Assembly (NCBI RefSeq): GCF_030684315.1
Contig: NC_081379.1
Span: 44,969,404 to 45,033,403 of the forward strand
Source of the DNA: Stegostoma tigrinum
Taxonomy: Eukaryota
DNA: 64,000 nt
Direction of reading: 5' to 3'
Shown: in pieces, positions 2,480-63,384 of the stretch
How the letters are laid out: each line of letters starts with the position of its first letter
How positions within the stretch are numbered: the first letter of the stretch is position 1
The notes under the pieces: model-generated
Databases searched by the model: none
Told to the model about the DNA's origin: nothing
What the model saw: the letters and a program-made list of their open reading frames with translations, nothing else
Made by a program: the position numbers and the translations under genes

Positions 2480-3560
2480 TCATGTTTGCATTGGCGTTTC
2501 AAACGGATAATGTCTGTCAATTCATGGAATGTTGGATGTGTTGTAGGCAGTTAGCTTATCGTGTGTGGACAGCACAACATTGCGTCAGTTGACTGACTGC
2601 ATCACATGTAAGAAGTGTAAAAGGATGATATTTGCACTAGTTCAAGTGTCAATTTTGGTATATAGTATATCACTTGGATGGAGGTAAAGGCTTCACTTTT
2701 CACTTTTACTGATGGACTCCACGTGGACTCCCATGTACTGACTGGGGTGAGCAGGTTAAGGTTGTGGTTACTGTTTGACTTTGTTGACATGTTTGTGTAC
2801 ATGTATGGAATGTTTGAATCTTTGGCATTGTACCTTGATTGGTTAGTCCTTCTTCACATGCTGCTGTGGAGCACTGTGCTGTACTTGGGGTTTCTCTGTA
2901 GAGTTAGGCTTTCTGTATACCTTTGTACTCTTATGGAAGAAAGCTCACAAATACCACAAAATGCTGTACACTATTTTGATGCATGAGACAAGCCACAACT
3001 CATGCAAGATTTTGATGTTCTAGTGACCCTGTTCATGGCTACAATAGATGTTCTAGAGGCCAACACTTGCATTTGCTGCTGTCCTGCTACATTCTCTTCA
3101 AAAATGTCACCTTCTCCTATTGGTGTCAATTGTGTAATCTGGTTTTGTCCAGAACTCATTTTCTGGAGAATTTGATGGCACTAACCAGTTTCTTAAGTCT
3201 TTCAGCTAAGTTGTCTTTTGTGAAACTATATTCTGTAGCGTTGTGACAACACTTGCCTATAAATTGGTCAATCATTTCAGTTGGCTGTGGGCAATACATG
3301 AAGTCAAACCTGTGTATCCTGAAACAGACTTGAATTTCAAATTGGTCTTATAAAAATCTGAAAGTGCTTTTCAGAATCTCTATAGTTACTGTCAGAAATC
3401 TCAAGATTTTTATTCTTCTTAACTCTTCGGTACCCAAAGAGAGAAGAGATTTGAGAGTTTGACTTTATCAGTTATTTGCTGATCTAAAGATTTAGAAAAC
3501 CTTAGTTCTGACAGAATGAAAAAGGATTGCCAGTCCATGTTATGTGTTTTCTTTCTATGT
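2480..3560 (-). mobile_element. Gypsy-like LTR retrotransposon remnant (gag and protease)
   Basis: Minus-strand FRIHRFDFMYCPQPTEMIDQFIGKC (gag-like), decayed knuckle CMSCGLSHASK*CTAF and KIDT*TSANII (protease DTG-like) at about 2625-2670. Confidence 0.55.
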
Positions 3561-4520: not shown

Positions 4521-4719
4521 ATGGCTCACACGAGAATTTCTGCCAAGTATCCTCCTCACATCGACCCGACCAAGGCGCCCATTGCCTTCGGGGACCGCGC
4601 TTTGCCCAAGCTGAAACGGGAGCTAGCGGATCCCGATCTCCTGGTCCGGCAACGGGCCCTCATGGCTCTGTGTGACTTGCTGCACGACCCCGAGTTAGCT
4701 TACACGGCGGTCGAGGTCG
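4521..4719 (+). CDS. RSPH14: Radial spoke head 14 homolog, coding exon 1
   Basis: MAHTRISAKYPPHIDPTKAPIAFGDRALPKLKRELADPDLLVRQRALMALCDLLHDPELAYTAVEV resembles the RSPH14/RTDR1 N-terminus. 199 nt, donor G|GTAAGT, phase 1. Confidence 0.92.
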
Positions 4720-6165
4720 GTAAGTGAAGGCCCTCTTCACTACTTGCACAACACACAATTAAGAAAAGGGAAGGTGCCAGTCAGTTTGGAGGAACTGCAG
4801 GGCGCCGAGGAAGTTGGGTGTATCAACATGGTCCCTTGTCTGCTTCATTCCTTAACTTAGCTGCTCAATAAACGTGACTTGTACAAATGCATTTGTACAC
4901 ATTATCTACTTATTATAACAATAGGTATCTATTACATACGAAAAATAAATCCGTTATCGTAGACGTAGATTAACCGAAGAAAGGTTTCGTCGTCAAGGTA
5001 TGTAGGCACTAATAAAAAGAAACTAATAATTGGAAATTAACTTCTGGTCCTACTCCATTGTGAAGTATAAGACTTGTCAAACCAATATGCCTTAGTTGCC
5101 AGTTTTACAGTTTTCTTTCTAAGGCGAAAATTAAGGCCAACTCTCAGATTACTGCTTCACTTCCCAGACTTACCATTAACACTAACCCCTAAATCTCTCT
5201 GGAGAGATTTTTCAGTGACAAAATACCATGATCGAGCGATGCCAGTCATTTTCATTTCGATTCCATACCTCCAAGCCAAATCCATCAGCATCCCTATTAT
5301 TGTCTCAGGTTGAAATCCCATTTACACATTTTTTGGGAATGTCTGCTGAATGTTTTATTCAACATCCAGTTTATCACGTGCAACATGTCCAGCTAATTGG
5401 GGTCTCAACTTTTAAGATTGAATTTTCCAAAACTGCTGGTTCAATCCTTCAAAAATAACAGTTGCTGTTGAATTTGGGAACTTGAGTATTGTCCTACATT
5501 GATTGATGGTCACTAAGCACTCCTGCCCTTCCATAATTTCCTGTGCCCAATGATCCAGTTTTCCAATCCTTGGTTTATCCTATTTTGAAGAATGTTCAGA
5601 ACTGAGGAGGACACCCAGCAAAGCAAACTAAGTGCAAACAGCAGCCTTTTGGAATCCTCTTGGATGCAGATCAGGAGTACAATCGCCAAAAAAAACTGAC
5701 ACTAGCTACTTTCCAAGTTGATGTTATTAAAATGCACTGTCAAAGAAAACATGCTGCATAAAAATAAAGAAAGATTACAGAGAATATTGCCAGTCACTGA
5801 TTATATATGCAATGAAATTTGGAAAGAAATGTATCTATATAACTTTGATCAATTAATTGCTGTTGCATCTCTTTACTTCTATAATTTTGAATGACAGGTT
5901 ATTAAGTATGCATCCTTTCAGTAGAAGAGAAATAAAAACTTAGTGGTAAGGTGGAAGCACAACATTTAATAAAAAGTATAACTTGTAATTGGAAACAATG
6001 CAAAGAACAGAATTATGCTTTTTAAAATTCACTCATGGGGTGAGAGAGTGTTGCTGGCTGGGCCAGCATTCGTTACCCAACCTGAGTTTCCCTTGAGAAG
6101 GTGGGAGTGAGCTCTTTCCTGTGGACAATTGTTCATTGATTACCTTCCTTTGAACCTGCAGTATT

Positions 6166-6690
6166 TAAGACCATAAGATGTATGAGGAACAGAAATTGAA
6201 CCTGCTCCACCATTCAATGAGACCACAGCTATAAACACTCAACTCTACTTTCCTGCCTTTTCCTCATATCCCTAGACTTTTGTTGATTAAAGATCTGTTT
6301 CAGCCATCAATATTCTTCATGACCAAGTCTCAACAGCCCTCTGTGGTTAAAAGAAATCTATGTATTCACTACTCAGACGTAATCCTGCTCATCTGTCTTG
6401 AATGAGTGACCTCATTCTGACTTAGTCAGAAATTGTATCCTCTTGTTCTAGACTCTCCTACATGGGATAGTCTGTACAACTATCCTAACAAGTCCTCAAA
6501 GGATTTCAGGTTTTAATAAGGTCATCTCTCATTCTCCTAAACATCAATCATAAAACAATCCCTTCATACCCTGGATTAGCTGAGTGAACTTTCTTTGGCT
6601 TGCCTCCAGTGCCAGTATATCTTTCCTTAGATAAAGTGACCAAAGTTGTTTGCACTACTGTAGTGTGGTCTGATTTGTGCTTGTATAGTT
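6166..6690 (-). mobile_element. CR1 LINE 3' fragment
   Basis: Reverse-complement similarity to the CR1 3' ends at 26900-27480 and 38400-38900. Confidence 0.6.
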
Positions 6691-6691
6691 T

Positions 6692-7545
6692 TAAAGTTTG
6701 AGAAATTTGTAGCTTGGCTTCTGGATGAGGTTGCAGACTTTGCTTGTGCAGCCAGTGTGTTTGATTGCATACCTTTGGCCACCCTGCTAGGTTACATGGT
6801 CAGTGTGCCTCTGTGAAGCATCTGTGTTCTATCCTGAGATGCTGCTTGGCCTGCTGTGTTCATCCAGCCTCACATTTTATTATCTTGGAATCTCCAGCAT
6901 CTGCAGTTCCCATTATCTGTGTTCTATCCTGCTTGTTATTTGTGTGCCTTGGTTTACTGGAGTGGTTGATGTTACTTCTAGTTCTGTTTTGCAGTAATTT
7001 GTATATCAGAACCAGTTCAATGTGTTTGATGGAGTTTTTTGTTGGAATGCCAAGTCTCCAGGAATTCCCTGACATGTCTAATACCCACAACCAATAAAAC
7101 TAATATAACAAAATACCATGCAAGGATTGAGAGAACCATTGCATAGGCCAAACTGGAAGAAAACTGGCAATAATGATACATGAACATTAACTAGACACCT
7201 AGAGATATGACCAATTCTCACTGGTTTCAATACACATGGACAAAGAAGGATGCAAATGTGATTGGGACAACACATCCATAATAGTACAAGCCAAACAGAG
7301 ACATGCCAGAAAATTCCTGGAGGCCTGGCATTCCAACCAGAACTGTCAACAAACACATTGAACTGGACCCAATATACAGACTACTGAAAAACAAAACCAG
7401 AAGTAATACCAACCACTCCAGCAAACTTAGGCATATAAATAAGGTAGAGTACCAAAGCTTCACCAGCAGTGCACTGACAATGTTATCTAGAAGGGTGGCA
7501 AAATGTCTGCAATCAAACATATTGGCTCCGTGAACAAGTCTGTAG
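6692..7545. mobile_element. Penelope-like element (Poseidon-type) with inverted arms
   Basis: 6692-7080 is the diverged reverse complement of about 7298-7545. GIY-YIG C-terminus RKFLEAWHS..NKHIELDPIY is present. Confidence 0.7.
6837..6914 (+). mobile_element. Short PLE (Neptune-type) 3' tail with 17-bp TSD
   Basis: Flanked by ATCTGTGTTCTATCCTG at 6820-6836 and 6915-6931; near-identical to the tails at 13208-13290 and 47998-48050. Confidence 0.8.
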
Positions 7546-13153: not shown

Positions 13154-13185
13154 ATAAGACACATCTTTTCCTAGAAAGCTGCCTG

Positions 13186-13292
13186 AAACGTCAGCTTTTG
13201 TGCTCCTGAGATGCTGCTTGGCCTGCTGTGTTCATCCAGCCTCACATTTTATTATCTTGGAATCTCCAGCATCTGCAGTTCCCATTATCTCT
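13186..13292 (+). mobile_element. PLE 3' tail fragment
   Basis: GAAACGTCAGCTTTTGTGCTCCTGAGATGC...CCCATTATCT, same family as 46559-46665. Confidence 0.8.
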
Positions 13293-18228: not shown

Positions 18229-18331
18229 GCTGTTTGGAGAACTTAAAATTTCTTTTGAAGGATGAGGATGCTACTGTTCGTCGCAAGACCACAGAAATTT
18301 TCTATATTTTGGTTACACATAGTATTGGAAG
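18229..18331 (+). CDS. RSPH14: Radial spoke head 14 homolog, coding exon 2
   Basis: Acceptor ttttttttccttcag and donor AG|GTAAGA; 103 nt; in frame with exon 1, encoding (G)[33 protein letters not shown](R), an ARM/HEAT-like segment. Confidence 0.92.
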
Positions 18332-23799: not shown

Positions 23800-25130
23800 T
23801 TAACAGCGTGGAGTTCGAGGAACACAGCAGGTCATAGCAGCATCAGAGGAGTAGGAGAGTAGATGTTTTGGCTTAGACCCTTCATCGGTACTGGGGAGGG
23901 GGAAGGGAGCTGGGAAGTAAACAGAGGGAAGGGGGTGGGCTGGGGGAAGGTAGGTGGGATGATGATAGATGGATGCAGGTAGGGGTATTAGGGATAGGTC
24001 AGTGGGAAAGGTGGAGCGGATAAGTGGAGAGGAATATGAACACTTAGTGTCAGGTCCAAGAGGCAGGGATGAGAGGGAGGGTTGAACTTGGAATGAGATC
24101 ATGAGTGAGGAGATTTTGAAACTGGTAAATTCTATGTTTAGGGCATCAGGTTGTAGGCTCCCAAGGTAGAATATGAGGTGTCGTTCTTTCACTTTGCGTG
24201 TGCTGTCATTGTGGCACTGGAGGAGGCCCGGGATGGACATGTCATCAAGGGCCTGGGGGGGGGAGTTAAAACGGTTAGCAACTGGAAGGTATTGCTGATT
24301 ATAGCATACGGAGCATAGGTGCTCCACAAATCTGTCACCGAGCCTACTTTTGGTCTCACTAATGTAGAGGAGGCCACATCAGGAGCAACAGTTATAGTAG
24401 ACCAGGTTGGAGGATGTGCAGATGAATCCATCAGATATGCAATGTTTTTCTTGGGCCTGGGATGGAGAGGGGAGGTGTAGGTACATGTGTAGCATCTCCT
24501 GTAGTTACAGGGAAAGGTGCCAGGGTGGTAGGGTTGGTGGGGAGTGTGGAGTGGACCAGGGAGTCACGGAATTAGTGATTCTGACAAAAGGCATATAGGG
24601 GTGGGGAGGGAAATATCTCTTTGGTGGTGGGGCCGGATTGTAGGTGGTGGGAGTGGCGGAGGATTATTTGCTGGATGTGGAGGTTGGTGAGGTAGTATGT
24701 GAAGACCAGGAGTCTCTGTCTTTATTTTTGTTCGGGCGGTGGGGGTGGTTTGAGAGCAGAAATGTGAGAGATGCTGGAGAAGTGGTTGAGGGCGTTTTTG
24801 ATCAACAGAGGGGGGAAGTTGCGGTCCTTGAAGCAAGAGGACATCTGGGATGTCCTGGAATGGAATGCACCATCTTGGGAGCCGATGCGGCAGAGGCAGA
24901 GGAATTGGGAGTAAAGGATCACATTCTTGCAAGAAGGTGGGTGAGAGGAGGTGCAGTGAAGGTGTGAGTCGGTGGGTTTGAAACAGATGTCAGTGCTGAG
25001 ACGGTTACCGGGTATGGAGACAGACAGGTCCAGGAAGGGGAGGGAGGTATTGGAGATGGTCGAGGTGATTTTGAGATTGGGGTGAAAGGTGTTCGTAAAA
25101 TTGAACTGTTCAAGCTCCTCATGACAGGCA
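23800..25130 (-). mobile_element. Penelope-like element (Neptune-type): RT C-terminus, GIY-YIG endonuclease and tail
   Basis: FHPNLKIT..LPFLDLSV..FKPTDSH..SSHPPSCK (PLE RT) and EHL..LPVANRFNS..ERHLIFYLGSLQPDALN (GIY-YIG C-terminus); frameshifted. Confidence 0.88.
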
Positions 25131-26162
25131 GAGTTGCAACATTGTGTACACACAGCACATGAAGTCCTTAAAGGTGAACTGTCTTAAACACAAAGTACAC
25201 GTACAGCAGGAAGAGCTAGGGGAGTTAACAGAGTTCTGCACTTGTTACTAGTTTTATGTGAAAATATTTTAGTAGCAGTAATAATAAAAAGAAAAAGTTT
25301 ATAGAAGTCAAATTGAAATAACCAAGGATAATGAGTGAGATCAAGATGGTTAAAAGAAAAGCCAGTCAACCACAGTATTGTCTTTCATGTGAAGATGGGG
25401 TCTGCTGGATATCCAGTGGAACATAGAACGTCACAGTTGAGAGACACATGACTCAATCTTCCAGAAGCTAAATCCTGTATAATGTGTATAGTTGAAAGTA
25501 GATTTAGCCATATTTCTCAGGGCGTAAGTTGTTTAAACTTTTAAAATTATCTAATGCTGTTAATGCCAATTATCTAGGGATCTAACCCAAATTGAATTTC
25601 ATCAGTTTTCAGTCGTCTCACACACCGATCTCAGCATTAATTGGAAATCAGTGACATTGTTATTGCTGAATTATTATTTCCATTACAACATCTGCAGCAT
25701 ATTTTCATTAAGTAACTATTCATCACTTGTTTGTCATTCAAGCTTGAAACTTGACTGTGATTGTATCTATTTATGCCCATTAATTTCTTAATTGACTGTA
25801 AATTTTGATTTTATCAATAAATAATGTTAATGCATGACTTATTGTTTGACTTGTTCTTGAATTAATCAAGGATGGAGAACTTAATTCATGTAAGAAATTA
25901 CAGATATCATAAGGTTTGCTAAAGTGAGTGCAATATTTACTGTGAACTTCATGCAGTTGGTGAATTATTTAGATATAATGCACTTCCAGATGTAAAATTG
26001 TGTCGCAAAACCCCGACAGTTTCTTACCAGAAATTGAACGAAAGAATTAAACATTTATCTGATTCCTTGAATTATATTTGCCTGGTTATCTAAACATCAT
26101 ATTTGCTACATGAAGGTTAAAGTCCTCATCCTAATGTTTACATCAAATTATCACCCTTCTCT

Positions 26163-30465: not shown

Positions 30466-30584
30466 ATTTGCATTTTTGGAAAATGATGTCATTATGCCAT
30501 TGTCTGAGCTGCTTGAAGATCCTGAGGACATCTGTCGCAAAAACATGCATATGGTTCTGGAGATGTTCTCGCAAATCCCAGCAG
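30466..30584 (+). CDS. RSPH14: Radial spoke head 14 homolog, coding exon 3
   Basis: Long polypyrimidine tract ending tgcag; donor CAG|GTAGGA; 119 nt; in frame, encoding (R)FAFLENDVIMPLSELLEDPEDICRKNMHMVLEMFSQIPA(G). Confidence 0.92.
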
Positions 30585-33910: not shown

Positions 33911-34636
33911 AAGATAATGGGAACTGCAAATGCTGGAGAACCCAAGATAACAAAGTGTGGAGCTGGATGAACACAGCTCGCGGGAAACCAAGTGGAGGCT
34001 TGAGGACTGCTTTGCAGAACACCTACGCTCGGCTCGCAATAAACAACTGCATCTCCCAGTCGCGAACCATTTCAACTCCCCCTCCCATTCCTTAGACGAT
34101 ATCTCCATTCTGGGCCAACTGCAGATGCCACCCGAAGGTTGCAGGAACAGCACCTCATGATCCACTTGGGAACCCTGCAGCCCAGTGGTATCAATGTGGA
34201 TTTCACAAGCTTCAAAATCTCCCCTCCCCCTACTGCATCCCAAAACCAGCCCAGTTTGTCCCCGCCTCCCTAACCTGTTCTTCCTCTCACCTATCCCCTC
34301 CTCCCACCTCAAACCACACCCCCATCGCCTACTTACTAAGCTCATCCCGCCTCCTTGACCTGTCCGTCCTCCCCGGACTGACCTATCCCCTCCCTACCTC
34401 CCCACCTACACTCACCTCTACAGGCTCCATCCCCACCTCTTTAACTTGTCTGTCTCCTCTCCACCTATCTTCTCCTCTATCCATCTTTGATCCGCCTCCC
34501 CCTCACTCCCTATTTATTTCAGAACCGTCTCCCCCTCCCCCTTTTCTGATGAAGGGTCTAGGCCCGAAATGTCAGCTTTTGTGCTGCTAAGATGCTGCTT
34601 GGCCTGCTGTGTTCATCCAGCTCCACACTTTGTTAT
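33911..34636 (+). mobile_element. 5'-truncated PLE with inverted short pLTR and 16-bp TSD
   Basis: Inverted tail at 33911-33977, then GIY-YIG ETKWRLEDCFAEHLRSARNKQLHLPVANHFNS and the tail. CTCCTCCACTGAGTTA is duplicated at 33895-33910 and 34637-34652. Confidence 0.9.
34546..34573 (+). ncRNA. Minimal hammerhead ribozyme motif (mutated)
   Basis: CTGATGA-AGGGTCTAGGCCC-GAAAT-GTC; one change from the copy at 47954. Confidence 0.55.
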
Positions 34637-34711
34637 CTCCTCCACTGAGTTATTCAGTTGTCTACCGGTATTAATAAATGGATGTGGCAGGACTGCAGCG
34701 CTTTGATCTGA

Positions 34712-45500: not shown

Positions 45501-46657
45501 CTTTGACATTCTGGATCATCTGTGCATCCTTAGGGGATCTTCAGCTGCAGCTTTTTCACGGAAACTATTCAGCAAATGCTGGAGGGTACTTTAGATATTG
45601 GGCTGACTAAAGTATTTACGGCTTTTAATTTCTCTGTGCTGTCAGAGCACATGGCTCCAATGATAACCCCTTCTGTAGCAGGATCTCAATTGGATGTGGT
45701 TTCAATGAATGTGTGTGGGGAATATCAGAAACAGAACAGTTTCTTAGTAAAGTGAGCATTCAGCATTTGCATCACACACAAATGACAATTTAGCACAGTC
45801 TTCTATGTGATGGGGCATGGGAGACCCAGACAAGAAAAACTATGGACAATGTTCCTCCTAACTTTCTTACTGGCTTTGCCGGCCTCAAGTCTGTGTGTGA
45901 CAGTAACTTCTGGAATTGGAAGTCAGTGCCACATACTGATTACCACACATGGAACCTAGGTGTGCACAGCCACATAGTTTAGAGGGAACATTGCCCATGG
46001 AATGACATTATTTGGACCTTTGTAGGGGACTTCATTCCAATATATGACTTCATATCCAAGCTATGCTGTGCACATACAGTTGGAGATTGTAAATGCAGTA
46101 GGATTACCGAAAAATTACCCTATAGCCCCACTATTCACGCCACCTACATCACTAAAGAAAAGCAGCATTTTGCTGAATACTTACAGTTCAAGGTGAGAGG
46201 TAATATGTGACCTTTTGATCCATGACCTGTGGGACTTTGGATCATCTTAATGAATTGTGGCTCATAAGTAACACTTTTAAGGTCACCTGTAATTACTTCT
46301 GCTTCATGCACTGATCCATATCCACATGGTTGGACAGTACATTCATTTCACATGCAGAGTGCTGTGATTACTGATGTCCTCAACTGTGTAGATGCCTGAT
46401 CAATGCATTTGAAACTTGAAGGACTTCACATTACTCACAATTACAATCTGCATGTACAGAGGAAAAGAAAAGACTTCCTATGCCTATTCTGGGTGTGGTT
46501 ATGACCATTTTCCATTTCCACTGCACATTTGCCATTTAGACAAGAATGGAAGCTAAAAGAGATAATGGGAACTGCAGATGCTGGAGAATCCAAGATAATA
46601 AGTTGTGAAGCTGGATGAACACAGCAGGCCAAGCAGCATCTCAGGAGCACAAAAGCT

Positions 46658-46685
46658 GACGTTTCGGGCCTAGACCCTTCATCAG
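46658..46685 (-). ncRNA. Minimal type-I hammerhead ribozyme motif in PLE tail
   Basis: Minus strand CTGATGA-AGGGTCTAGGCCC-GAAAC-GTC: core boxes, stem II GGGT/GCCC and a GUC cleavage triplet. Confidence 0.7.
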
Positions 46686-47003
46686 AGAGGGGGATGGGGT
46701 GAGGGTTCTGGAATAATTAGGGAGAGAGGGGGAGGCGGACCGAAGATGGAGAGAAAAGAAGATAGGTGGAGAGTAGAGCATAGGTAGGGAGGTAAGGAGG
46801 GGATAGGTCTGTCCAGGGAAGACGGACAGGTCAAGGAGGTGGGATGAGGTTAGTAGGTAGGAAATGGAGGTGCGGCTTGGGGTGGGAGGAAGGGATGGGT
46901 GAGAGGAAGAACAGGTTAGGGAGGCAGAGACAGTCGGGGCTGTTTTTGGGATGCAGTGGGTGGAAGGGAAGAGCTGGGCTGGTTGTGTAGTGCAGTGGGG
47001 GAA

Positions 47004-47209
47004 GAGAGATCTCCTCTCCCTCACAGTGGGGTAAAGGTGAGTGAGTAGTCTGAGAGATCTCCTCTCCCCTACAGGGGGGAGAGGAGATCTCTCAGACTAC
47101 TCACTCACTTTTACCCACCTGTAGGGGAGTGGGTTCTCTTAGACTACTCACTGACTTTTACCCCCCTGTTGGGGGACAGGGGGGGAAATCTCTCAGACTA
47201 CTCGCTCAC
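47004..47209. repeat. ~48-54-bp minisatellite with internal inversion (perfect 33-bp hairpin)
   Basis: AGACTACTC recurs at 47094, 47141 and 47195; inverted units start at 47004 and 47052. 47037-47069 is the exact reverse complement of 47076-47108. Confidence 0.9.
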
Positions 47210-47623
47210 CTTGCTGATAGTGCTGTGGTACGGGTGCTCGGCGTCCATGGGGGGCGGCGGGATGTCGAACGACCTCCTCCAGACGCGGACCTGCTCCTCC
47301 CCGTGGCGGGCGGCGGTCTCCGCCTTGTTGAGGCTGGTCAGGGCGCCGTAGTGCCGCTCGTTGAGGCGCCAGGAGCGGGTGATGGGCAGCCACATCTGGT
47401 CGGTGGTGTCCAGGATGATCCAGAGGGTGCGGATGGCCCTCCGCAGCACCGAGGTGTAGCAGCAGTCGAACAGGTAGCCGGCATCCCGCAGGGCCTCGGC
47501 CTCCCGCTGCGCCTCGCCGACCCCCTTCTCGCTCAGCTCCGCGTCGAACCAGCCGCAGAAGCGGTTCTCCTGGTTCCAGGTGCTCTCGCCGTGCCGCACC
47601 AGCACCAGGCGGTGACACGCCAT
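47210..47623 (-). pseudogene. PGAM2: Phosphoglycerate mutase (PGAM2-type) first exon, isolated unprocessed copy with open frame
   Basis: [67 protein letters not shown]; 138 codons with the RHG motif, then a phase-0 AAG|GTGAGC donor. An uninterrupted 414-nt first exon fits PGAM2 rather than PGAM1 (from recalled human gene structures). No downstream exons were recognised. Confidence 0.8.
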
Positions 47624-47953
47624 CGCCGCAACGGAGACCGGGTCCGACTCAGGCGCCGCTCCGCAGGCCGCGCCTCCCCCCACTGCATCCCAAAACCAGC
47701 CCAGCCTGTCTCTGCCTCCCTAACCTGTTCTTCCTCTCACCCATCCCTTCCTCCCACCCCAAGCCGCACCTCCATTTCCTACCTACTAACCTCATCCCCC
47801 CTCCTTGACCTGTCCGTCTTCCCTGGACTGACCTATCCCCTCCCTACCTCCCCACCTATACTCTCCTCTCCACCTATCTTCTTTTCTCTCCATCTTCGGT
47901 CCGCCTTCCCCCCTCTCCCTATTTATTCCAGAACACTCACCCCATCCCCCTCT

Positions 47954-47981
47954 CTGATGAAGGGTCTAGGCCCGAAACGTC
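47954..47981 (+). ncRNA. Minimal type-I hammerhead ribozyme motif in PLE tail
   Basis: CTGATGA-AGGGTCTAGGCCC-GAAAC-GTC, identical to the left-arm motif. Confidence 0.7.
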
Positions 47982-48387
47982 AGCTTTTGTGCTCCTGAGA
48001 TGCTGCTTGGCCTGCTGTGTTCATCCAGCTTCACACTTTATTATCTTGGAAGCTAACAGAGGTTGTCCTTTGCGGAGTGAATTGTGGGCTCAGCCGGGTA
48101 ATCAAAGGGCTCCCCGATATCTGTATGTTCTTTTTTCTGCTGACCCCATCAGAATGTGCTTTCATATGTTATCACTAAACTCTTTCATTGAAGTCTTCAC
48201 TGTACAATTTACCTTCCAAGCTCTGGCATTTCAGCTTAGTTGTGCTGCACTGCCTTGCCATCAAAGTCAGGGTAATTGTGAATGTCAACAATTCTCCCCA
48301 CCTCCTGCAGTAAACCATATCTCATAATATATTGTTCTCTCCCACCCTGATATTTTGAGTTCCCTCTGCACAATTACTGTCTCCTCT

Positions 48388-49030
48388 GAGATGACAAGAA
48401 CTGCTGATGCTGGAGTCTGAGACAACGCAGTGTGGGGCTGAATGAACACAGTAGGCCAGGCAGCATAGAGGAGCAGAAAAGTTGATATTTCGATTCGAGA
48501 CCGTTCTTCAGAAATGTGGAGGGGAAGGGACCTCAGAAGTAAATAGGAGGAGTGGGGCTGGGGAAGGTAGGTGGGGTGGTGATAAGTGAGTGCAGGTAGG
48601 CCGTGGTAGGGATTGGTCAGTGAGTTGGGAGGGGCGGATAGGTGCGAGAAAAGGTGGACAGGTTGTGTCAGGTCAAGGAGGCAGCATGAGATGGAGGGTT
48701 GATCATGGGTTGACGCTGGGGGTGGGGAGATTTTGAAACTGGTGAAATCCAGTTAAACGCCATTGGGCTGTAGTCTCCCAAGCCAGAATATGAGGTGCTG
48801 CTCCTTCGGTTTGTAGCTGGCATCATTGTGACACTGGAGGAGGTGCAGGATGGACATGTCACCTTAGGAGTGGGAGGGGGAGTTAACATGGTTTGCAAAC
48901 AGAAAGTGCTGCCATTTGTCTTGCACTGAGTGTAGATGCTCTACAAAATGGTCTCCGAATCTCCACTTAGTCTCACCAATGTAGAGGAGGCCACATCAGG
49001 TGCAGTGGATGCAGTAGACCAAGTTGACTG
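48388..49030 (-). mobile_element. PLE (Neptune-type) GIY-YIG and tail, older copy
   Basis: Homologous to 23800-24410 and 61420-61930 (CGLLYIGETKWRFGDHFVEHL). Confidence 0.8.
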
Positions 49031-61419: not shown

Positions 61420-62058
61420 TCTGATGCTGGAGTCTGAGATAACAAGGTGTGGAGTTGGAGGAACACAGAAGACCAGGCAGCATCGGAGGAGCAGGAAAGC
61501 TGATGATTCAGGTCTGGACATTTTCTTCAGAAGTGGAGGAGGGGAAGGGGGCTCTGAAATAAATAGAGCAGGGGATACAAGGTGGATAGTGGAATGGGAG
61601 AGAAGACAGACAGGTCAAGGAGGCGAGGAGGAGAGGGGGGCTGCTCTTGGGATGAAGTCCGGGGTAGGGAGATTTTGGAAGCCAGTTCGTCCAGTTTCTG
61701 GGTGGCGTTGTTGTGACACTGGAGGAGGCCCAGGATGGATGTGCCATTCCAGAGAGTGAGAGGGGGAGTTGAAGTGCTTCGTGACTGAGAGGTGTTGTCA
61801 TTTGTTGCAAACCAAGTGTAGGTGCTCCACAAAGTGGTCTCTGAGCCTCTGCTTGGTCTCCCTGATGTAGAGGAGACCACATCAGGAACAGCGGATACAA
61901 TAGACCACATTAACAGATGTGCAGGTGAACATCCTTTTAATGTGGAAGTTTTTTTTGGGGTCTGGGATGGAGGTGAGGTGGGAGGTTTAGCGGCAGGTCT
62001 TGCACCTCCTGCAGTTGCAGGGAAAGGTGCAGGGGTGGTGGGGCTAGTGGGGAACCAG
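61420..62058 (-). mobile_element. PLE (Neptune-type) Cys-linker, GIY-YIG and tail
   Basis: PGTFPCNCRRCKTC-like linker, SILGLLQCHNNATQKL; homologous to 23800-24540. Confidence 0.8.
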
Positions 62059-63384
62059 CTTATAGGAACCATGGCTCCAGAAACAGAAGATGTGGTTATT
62101 CCTGTGGCCGCTTGTTCAAGGCATGATCACATGAATGGGTGAGGAATACATGTATCAGGAAGACCGGGACCAACATCAACCTCCAAAGGATGTTGAAACT
62201 TCCAACATTAGGCATCGTTGTAATGTGGCCAAGATGCAGTGAGTATGCAAGATAGCCACAGTTGTATGTCTTCCATGGGATGTGATGCAGTTGAGGAAAG
62301 ATCAGTAACACTATACTTTTATCCAGATGTAGCTGTCAGAATGCCATATAATGCTGTCCAGAGAATCAGTTATATAACATGTTCTTTCAACAAAGCTACC
62401 AAGGACATTGAATGGCCCCTCCACATTAGGTTTTCTTGCATCTCTGGGGCTTCACAAGCGCTATCTAGCAAAAAGATCCTTGGAATCTCTGCTTCAGACA
62501 ACAGAGTGACGCACCAAAGCTACCGGATAGACATTGGGGTCTGTGAGAGTTGCACCATTGCTGCAACAGTGCTGTGGCAAGTAGAATCATAAGGGTGATC
62601 TTCAGACAGAACAGAATCTTCAGCATCTTAAAGTGTAGCAGCTTGAGACAAAACAACATAGGCAAGACTTCTTTTTGATTGGAACTCCTTGTTCAATGGA
62701 ACTGAATTGCTAGAATTAATCTTTCACTGGCTATAAATGTTCTGGTGCTGTTGAGGCCAGCATCCCATATATAATCCCAGCTGTAAATGCAGTTTAACAG
62801 TTATATCTTTTTATGCTGATTAATAAAAGTTAATATTACATAACATCAGATGTTTCCATATTCAGTTACAACAAGGTTTCAAGCTAGCATTGTCAGCCAG
62901 TATTAGACTATTGTGCAATGCAAAGGATGACCAGCCTCTCTACTTTCAAGCTTGTAAAGTGACATATTATCAACTGTGTGAGTTTATAAAATGAACATGC
63001 ATTTACAATGAAGTATCACCCGTTACACCTGTGTGTCCTGATTAAGTGTTCTTTTCCTTTCCATCCTGCTGTGTCTAGGTGCAGCACCAGTGCGCACTAG
63101 AAGGGAGCATACTCTGTAGTGGAGCACGTTGGTTTTGGAGGTTTGGTTGAATAACCTTGATGGCTTGGCAGGTGGGGGTGAGTAGTGCTGTTGATAGTGA
63201 TAATGGTGGTTGCTATGCATAGGAAAGAGCAGGGTTATGACTAGAGGGCCCCAGACATCCAGAGTGTGCTTGCCTAGCTGCAGGTTCACTTGCCTTAGCT
63301 TAAGTTCAATAGTGTTGATTGGGGTAGACAATGTGGAAGTGGAGGACCTAGATGTCTTTGGAGTGTCCTGAGAGGAGACTTCGG

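Follow-up and report, generated by a model that had tools for sequence, protein, structure and literature searches.

About 16 kb into intron 3 of RSPH14 in Stegostoma tigrinum, an intron of about 564 kb, lies a single insertion that carries a copy of the first coding exon of PGAM2 on the strand opposite to RSPH14 (Table 1). The stretch of DNA analyzed, 64,000 nucleotides long and here called the window, also includes the first three coding exons of RSPH14. Within the insertion the exon is accompanied by its 5' leader and by two pieces of intron 1, one of them inverted, and this filling is bounded on either side by the end of a Penelope-like element.

Table 1. Features of the insertion and of the RSPH14 gene that contains it (positions in the window).
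Feature	Positions	Strand	Remarks
RSPH14 coding exon 1	4521..4721	+	
RSPH14 coding exon 2	18229..18331	+	
RSPH14 coding exon 3	30466..30584	+	
Target-site duplication, left copy	46547..46561	+	15 bp, 1 mismatch to right copy
Insertion, one unit	46562-48046		1.5 kb; intron 3 of RSPH14
Left arm	46562..47003	-	5'-truncated 3' end of Penelope-like element; terminal tail about 46562-46588
Minimal hammerhead-like core, left arm	46658..46685	-	motif scan
Inverted piece of PGAM2 intron 1	47004..47079	+	mid unit 3 to G-run of unit 4; source L002:2093-2170
Collinear start of PGAM2 intron 1	47076..47209	-	134 nt; repeat units 1 to 3
Copy of PGAM2 coding exon 1	47210..47623	-	138 codons; G41E, V81I, G97S; 410/414 bases identical to C232 exon 1
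PGAM2 5' leader	47624..47674	-	identical to source; last 2 nt common to right arm
Right arm	47675..48046	+	5'-truncated 3' end, same family; without tail, 27-31 nt short
Minimal hammerhead-like core, right arm	47954..47981	+	motif scan
Target-site duplication, right copy	48047..48061	+	

The initial annotation of this stretch recognized a stop-free PGAM frame of 138 codons, and the translation of 47210-47623 (-) bears this out, matching Pfam His_Phos_1 (E = 1.8e-26) and retaining active-site His11. The strong start context, GCGATGG, is confirmed; the donor site, AAG/GTGAGC, is the same as that of the source gene; the leader, put at about 50 nt, comprises 49 nt plus the 2 bases common to the right arm; and 134 nt of the intron, put at about 140 nt, are collinear with the source. 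GC and CpG content do lie far above the flanks, at 0.70 with a CpG observed/expected ratio of 0.92, compared with 0.41 and 0.12 in the left 1-kb flank and 0.41 and 0.25 in the window, where the copy is the tile with the highest CpG richness. Read unspliced, it meets a stop three codons into the intron, giving 141 amino acids. Processed pseudogenes have had their introns removed and carry a poly(A) tail; the copy keeps its donor site and 134 + 76 nt of intron and lacks poly(A), which excludes that class, as had been argued, and its retention of the donor site and the start of intron 1 points to an unspliced template.

The GC-rich locus of origin that the annotation had postulated is a gene on C232, a 230-kb contig that does not adjoin the insertion. 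In a DNA search of the animal's own genome, this was the one near-identical locus found, at 97% over 601 nt; a single paralogue reached 76%. The gene on C232 comprises three exons with normal splice sites, is preceded by a TATA box and ends intact. Exon 1 of this gene shares 98% identity with a PGAM2-like protein of the whale shark, and the following named matches among cartilaginous fish are PGAM2, so that, by its closest homologues, the donor appears to be the PGAM2 orthologue. Among the best candidates scored in protein searches, exon 1 was found at four places (this copy, C232, C24 and C33) and exon 2 at three (C24, C232 and C33), of which we take C24 to be PGAM1 and C33 to be BPGM; no exon 2 was found among those candidates on C34, the chromosome that bears the insertion. 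The second active-site histidine (His186 of AHGNS, in the numbering of the closest homologue) belongs to an exon matched, among those candidates, only on C232, C24 and C33 and not beside the copy, which therefore lacks the full set of coding exons and the histidine pair of a functional PGAM and, as predicted, would not encode an active mutase alone. The annotation had named downstream PGAM exons, or this being the only PGAM2 exon 1 in the genome, as observations that would tell against it; no downstream exon 2 appeared among the best candidates scored, and an intact three-exon PGAM2 exists elsewhere.

Donor intron 1 opens with five units of a 47-59-nt repeat (L002:1972-2220), each starting with a donor-like GTGAG and ending in a C-run/G-run hairpin; the contig of organism B omits 113 nt of this repeat. 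The first coding exon of the PGAM1-like gene on C24 (L009:877-1290) is undivided, with 138 codons, as in PGAM2; mammalian PGAM1 has an extra intron within that region. In contigs of an RNA-like sequencing run (X5), donor exon 1 is joined to exon 2 at high depth, and an RNA-like contig starts at L002:1486 on the donor locus, which neither supports nor rules out the putative transcription start. Letters specific to the copy were absent from X5 at a 3% threshold, which does not imply silence, as contigs drop rare variants. PGAM2 is reported in mammalian spermatogenesis in the accessible part of PMC3348931.

The boundaries of the insertion are well defined. A contig of a related species (organism B, run X12) joins 46546 to 48047 with a single copy of the target, giving the empty site. 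Both outer junctions lie within contigs of X1 and of X2 (two samples of one study, one of which may be the source of the assembly), and the junction of right arm and leader is spanned by X1 contigs, in which copy-specific letters also occur. These observations show that a single Penelope-like insertion with a target-site duplication (TSD) holds the PGAM2 exon as its filling, the donor of the exon lying elsewhere in the genome. The initial annotation overlooked this vehicle, together with the fold-back that constrains the template; the arms, the TSD, the 76 nt of inverted intron, a second CpG decay (V81I) and a third change (G41E) go beyond it. Elsewhere in the window there are six or more further Penelope-like fragments, which belong to this family and to older ones (33914-34638, 23803-25183, 48290-49000, 61530-62126, 13181-13288 and 6832-6916); several carry hammerhead-like cores or GIY-YIG-type frames, and that at 33914-34638 resembles another head-to-head pair.

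The arms, which are alignable over 376 nt at 96% and stand head-to-head, belong to a family with thousands of candidate copies (5229 and 2165 in searches with the two arms), the left arm being 95-96% identical to the best of the 5229. Longer copies have an open reading frame with a reverse transcriptase (RT), then a Cys linker and then a GIY-YIG-type motif. One of them, L049, has a 678-aa frame with YIDD and YCIHC...YIGET motifs; it matches RVT_1 at E = 0.0028, short of the curated cutoff, and gave no match to the Pfam GIY-YIG domain itself, while many of its homologues carry PF00078 and some PF01541. The linker, CNRRKCYTC, fits the Neptune-type Zn-finger-like description CX2-5CxxC, a type of linker that Nematis has too. 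The hammerhead-like cores include the core motif, the bulged base, the G-C pair and the palindromic helix III among the features described in PMC4209133, with a helix I of only 2 bp; folding gave z-scores of 0.1 to 1.2, no signal of stability, and Rfam gave no match at gathering thresholds anywhere in the window. A miRNA-like reading at 47015-47130 was discarded, as the sub-threshold Rfam matches there merely mirror the fold-back.

Among 58 other copies of the family, taken as the best matches to the two arms rather than at random, 25 had a second, inverted arm no more than 1.5 kb away; 23 were single, and 10 extended past the end of the fetched DNA. Tracing 14 single arms without a nearby TSD over 10 kb gave an inverted partner and a TSD for one (L026, where the roughly 340 nt between the arms look like more of the element ORF), bringing the head-to-head form to 26/58; the other 13 (in L083-L096) had no TSD within 10 kb and may be insertions with a target deletion or rearrangement. 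The head-to-head arrangement is thus normal for the family. Among 14 pairs that could be seen in full, 12 have an arm shortened by 14-35 nt, like the right arm here, and 12 are accompanied by candidate TSDs of 12-18 nt. The gap between the arms is at most 38 nt in 24 of the 25 pairs and 93 nt in one, compared with 668 nt at this insertion, and no identified host filling was present in the other sampled pairs. The 93-nt gap (L054:2657-2749) is unmatched by the element library and may represent either more of the element ORF or another capture. Many short head-to-head pairs of the family, of about 180-230 nt with one arm tailed and the other not, were also seen (L085:2070-2286, L087:7513-7691, L090:1705-1931, 3218-3442 and 6529-6742, L084:7216-7421); most of their inner ends fall 87-131 nt from the 3' end, close to the hammerhead-like core, and the pairs resemble a MITE-like by-product.

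Minority alleles bear on the origin of the arms. Across 14 other inverted pairs (L011-L082), the two arms share 38 of 105 such alleles, or 36%, relative to a background of about 10%, which indicates that both arms of an insertion generally, with exceptions, descend from one source element or from closely related ones. The arms of the present insertion share none of 12 (two other pairs likewise share none) and so likely derive from two different element RNAs. A fold-back of a single element cDNA was rejected here as the source of both arms on the same 0/12 count.

The copy differs from its donor at 4 of 414 coding bases and at none of 49 leader bases. One difference is silent and, as the base of the copy is also that of organisms B and D, arose on the donor side. 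The other three are G>A changes in the copy, two of them at CpG, and produce G41E, V81I and G97S; the last arises by CG>CA, in line with the CpG decay that the initial annotation saw in LTSLNK from LTGLNK. Each of the three positions is invariant in 71 of 71 homologues, so the copy reads as a decaying fragment, although three of three changes being non-synonymous has P = 0.45 under neutrality, a pattern that fits decay and does not prove it. One contig of sample X2 combines letters of the copy with letters of the donor; it is probably a mosaic produced by collapse, and were it a real donor allele, V81I would no longer be specific to the copy. The frame is still open, as the annotation observed, which after only three substitutions is uninformative on function. 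From its sequence, the copy is probably dead and decaying, and it is very probably a functionless fragment. Its arrival was called recent, which holds in a relative sense: about 116 of 1830 bases differ in organism B, summed over the flank alignments, and a copy-specific change of 0.3-0.65% corresponds to an age of about 10-20% of the time that has passed since that species, which has the empty site, diverged. Dating by the epaulette-shark pedigree rate, as given in the accessible part of its source, was dropped because the flank divergence would become implausibly old.

The architecture of the filling constrains its template. On the plus strand the left arm is followed by 76 nt of sense intron, from mid unit 3 to the G-run of unit 4, then by antisense sequence from unit 3 back to the leader, and then by the right arm. 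The two host pieces have 17 nt of donor sequence in common and are joined at 3-4 shared G/C bases, and the outer junctions between host and arm have 1-2 bases in common. The turn of the fold-back coincides with the tip of a predicted 3'-terminal hairpin, in which the unit 4 G-run takes part in three of three predicted folds; the register seen in the copy has a probability of only about 0.10 in the predicted ensemble, and the unit 4 of the copy differs from the present donor unit 4. At its promoter side, the filling begins 23-25 nt downstream of the first T in the donor TATA box. A TATA box usually sets the start of transcription about 3-10 nt downstream of this junction. One-pass or twin-primed copying of a sense RNA was rejected as a route, as it would yield the reverse order of the two host pieces.

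We regard capture of the PGAM2 fragment during Penelope integration, by whatever route, as highly likely. As to the template, we tentatively favor, with somewhat less than even confidence, a self-primed cDNA of an unspliced PGAM2 transcript, captured during integration and leaving a fragment that is now probably dead. Going by the structure of the family and published biochemistry, the enzyme of the element would, in a germ-line cell, cut the two strands at nicks 15 bp apart, and at each nick a cDNA would start on a separate element RNA, one tailed and one tailless. A nascent PGAM2 RNA ending in unit 4 would fold its G-run onto a C-run and be copied back to its 5' end. The right-hand cDNA would then jump onto the end thus reached, copy the leader, exon 1 and the intron, follow the fold for 76 nt, halt and be joined to the left-hand cDNA. 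After insertion, the copy gained the three changes at invariant residues that it now displays. The plus-strand order, sense intron and then antisense to the start, is that of the snap-back strand, and among three routes giving the observed order the self-primed one best accounts for a start so near the promoter. In the available text on purified vertebrate Penelope, both strands are cleaved and extended, with two start sites separated by the tail (PMC11167929), and a propensity for self-priming has been inferred for Penelope (PMC3846280), with which this route agrees. Against an RNA template, an imperfect G-rich match to the end of the arm reaches TATA+15 (within the top 10 of 900 positions, by post hoc scoring), which, with a junction above the usual start, fits a template that included promoter sequence; against the proposed mechanism as a whole, the event is a single one among the sampled pairs.

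That match would also suit a DNA template in the same integration, whereby a cDNA end would invade the PGAM2 promoter, copy into intron 1, switch strands at the C/G runs, copy 76 nt back and rejoin. Such a route, plausible though we judge it unlikely, would keep the intron, would place the junction slightly above the expected start, and has a counterpart in the templated insertions of L1 integrations (bioRxiv 10.1101/2024.08.27.596794, PMC13174262, as far as their available text goes). However, the insertions described there are shorter than 250 bp and taken from no more than 15 bp from the site, whereas the PGAM2 donor is on another contig and not at the insertion site, and a start so near the promoter would be partly coincidence. 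Alternatively, a single antisense transcript across exon 1 could have received both element cDNAs, the right one landing near the promoter and the left in unit 3, with their ends annealing at GGG/CCC. Each host piece is PGAM2-sense from its own arm, the 17-nt overlap with 3-4 shared bases resembles the internal duplication described as a signature of L1 twin priming in the accessible accounts, and antisense templates have been proposed for intron retention (in the available part of PMC3846280); this antisense twin priming nevertheless requires two jumps onto a putative and probably rare molecule, and we consider it quite improbable.

Other explanations seek the source of the filling before or after the integration. 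An element in the PGAM2 promoter, on a lost allele, could have given an antisense read-through chimera of exon 1 and element 3' end that was then retrotransposed here. Such a 5' transduction would explain both the kept intron and a right arm from another element copy than the left, but neither the assembly nor the contigs of X2 and X12 that span the donor promoter have an element there, and searches of the own genome found no second chimeric copy, making it very doubtful. Palindromes are fragile, and the family has many inverted pairs whose arms directly adjoin, so that an ordinary head-to-head insertion might have broken at its center and been repaired with PGAM2 sequence; yet arms and filling have similarly low private divergence, the arms come from different templates, unlike those of most pairs, and two-ended repair from duplex DNA would normally leave the fill uninverted, so that a later patch is just as hard to credit. 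We give practically no credence to a real nested PGAM gene or to an assembly chimera. The open frame, good start context and intact donor site would suit a gene, but exon 2 matched only C24, C232 and C33 among the best candidates scored, the promoter was not copied and three invariant residues are changed; the chimera is opposed by the junction-spanning contigs in X1 and X2 and the copy-specific letters in X1.

Compared with known systems, the insertion resembles a case described in the rotifer Adineta vaga, where an intron-containing host sequence is framed by Penelope pseudo-LTRs and a TSD (PMC3846280, in the part available). As there, the host sequence keeps its intron, lies between element ends within one TSD, is missing from an empty allele and has its donor elsewhere. 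The Adineta vaga insertion has a whole NRPS gene enclosed by two direct repeats, together with a further repeat that is inverted; in the present case, from a vertebrate, a promoter-proximal fragment with an internal fold-back lies between arms that are inverted and do not form two direct pseudo-LTRs. What is new relative to the rotifer capture is therefore the start near the promoter, the fold-back, the inverted frame and the arms of two element copies. In the openly accessible literature we found no report of this locus, of a shark case or of a comparable vertebrate case, and the accessible parts of PMC9977147 and PMC6431247 contain no vertebrate case of such capture.

In the accessible descriptions of canonical EN+ Penelope-like insertions (PMC8557442; PMC11167929), one copy is inverted and 5'-truncated, and a tail of 30-40 bp is found on one side. 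The present insertion resembles them in its head-to-head arms, one-sided tail, candidate hammerhead-like core and TSD, and longer copies of its family in the RT and C-terminal GIY-YIG motif with a Neptune-type Cys linker; it departs from them in its 668 nt of non-element filling and in having arms of two element copies. With L1, for which bioRxiv 10.1101/2024.08.27.596794 and PMC13174262 in their available text describe twin priming, templated insertions and L1/host-RNA chimeras, it has in common the inversion, a short internal duplication, microhomology and the joining of host RNA or DNA to element cDNA at integration. Unlike L1 insertions, it involves another enzyme, lacks a poly(A) end, has element 3' ends at both outer ends and holds a host piece that is unspliced and central. 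Processed PGAM copies, such as PGAM4 (PMC3348931, likewise in part), are also dispersed coding copies that start near the transcript 5' end; unlike them, the present copy is unspliced, without poly(A), limited to exon 1 and framed by Penelope ends.

As a sequence feature, the copy is an annotation trap, having a first exon like a CpG island and an intact donor site within the intron of another gene. The value of the fragment is that of a well-bounded record of Penelope integration, with the donor, the empty site and all junctions known, so that RNA versus DNA and sense versus antisense templates are directly testable. According to the available text of PMC11167929, the later steps of Penelope integration still await validation, and PMC3846280 leaves open the polarity of the captured template. 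It is possible, if on balance rather unlikely, that in vertebrate germ lines the enzyme of Penelope starts cDNA at each of the two nicked strands, using a separate RNA for each, and connects them through any available single strand, including the self-primed cDNA of unfinished transcripts from other chromosomes. If this were true, the centers of thousands of shark head-to-head insertions would be a fossil library of captured templates, which could settle how Penelope elements complete integration and why introns are kept, and would reveal a route to intron-containing, promoter-proximal retrocopies overlooked by standard retrocopy screens.
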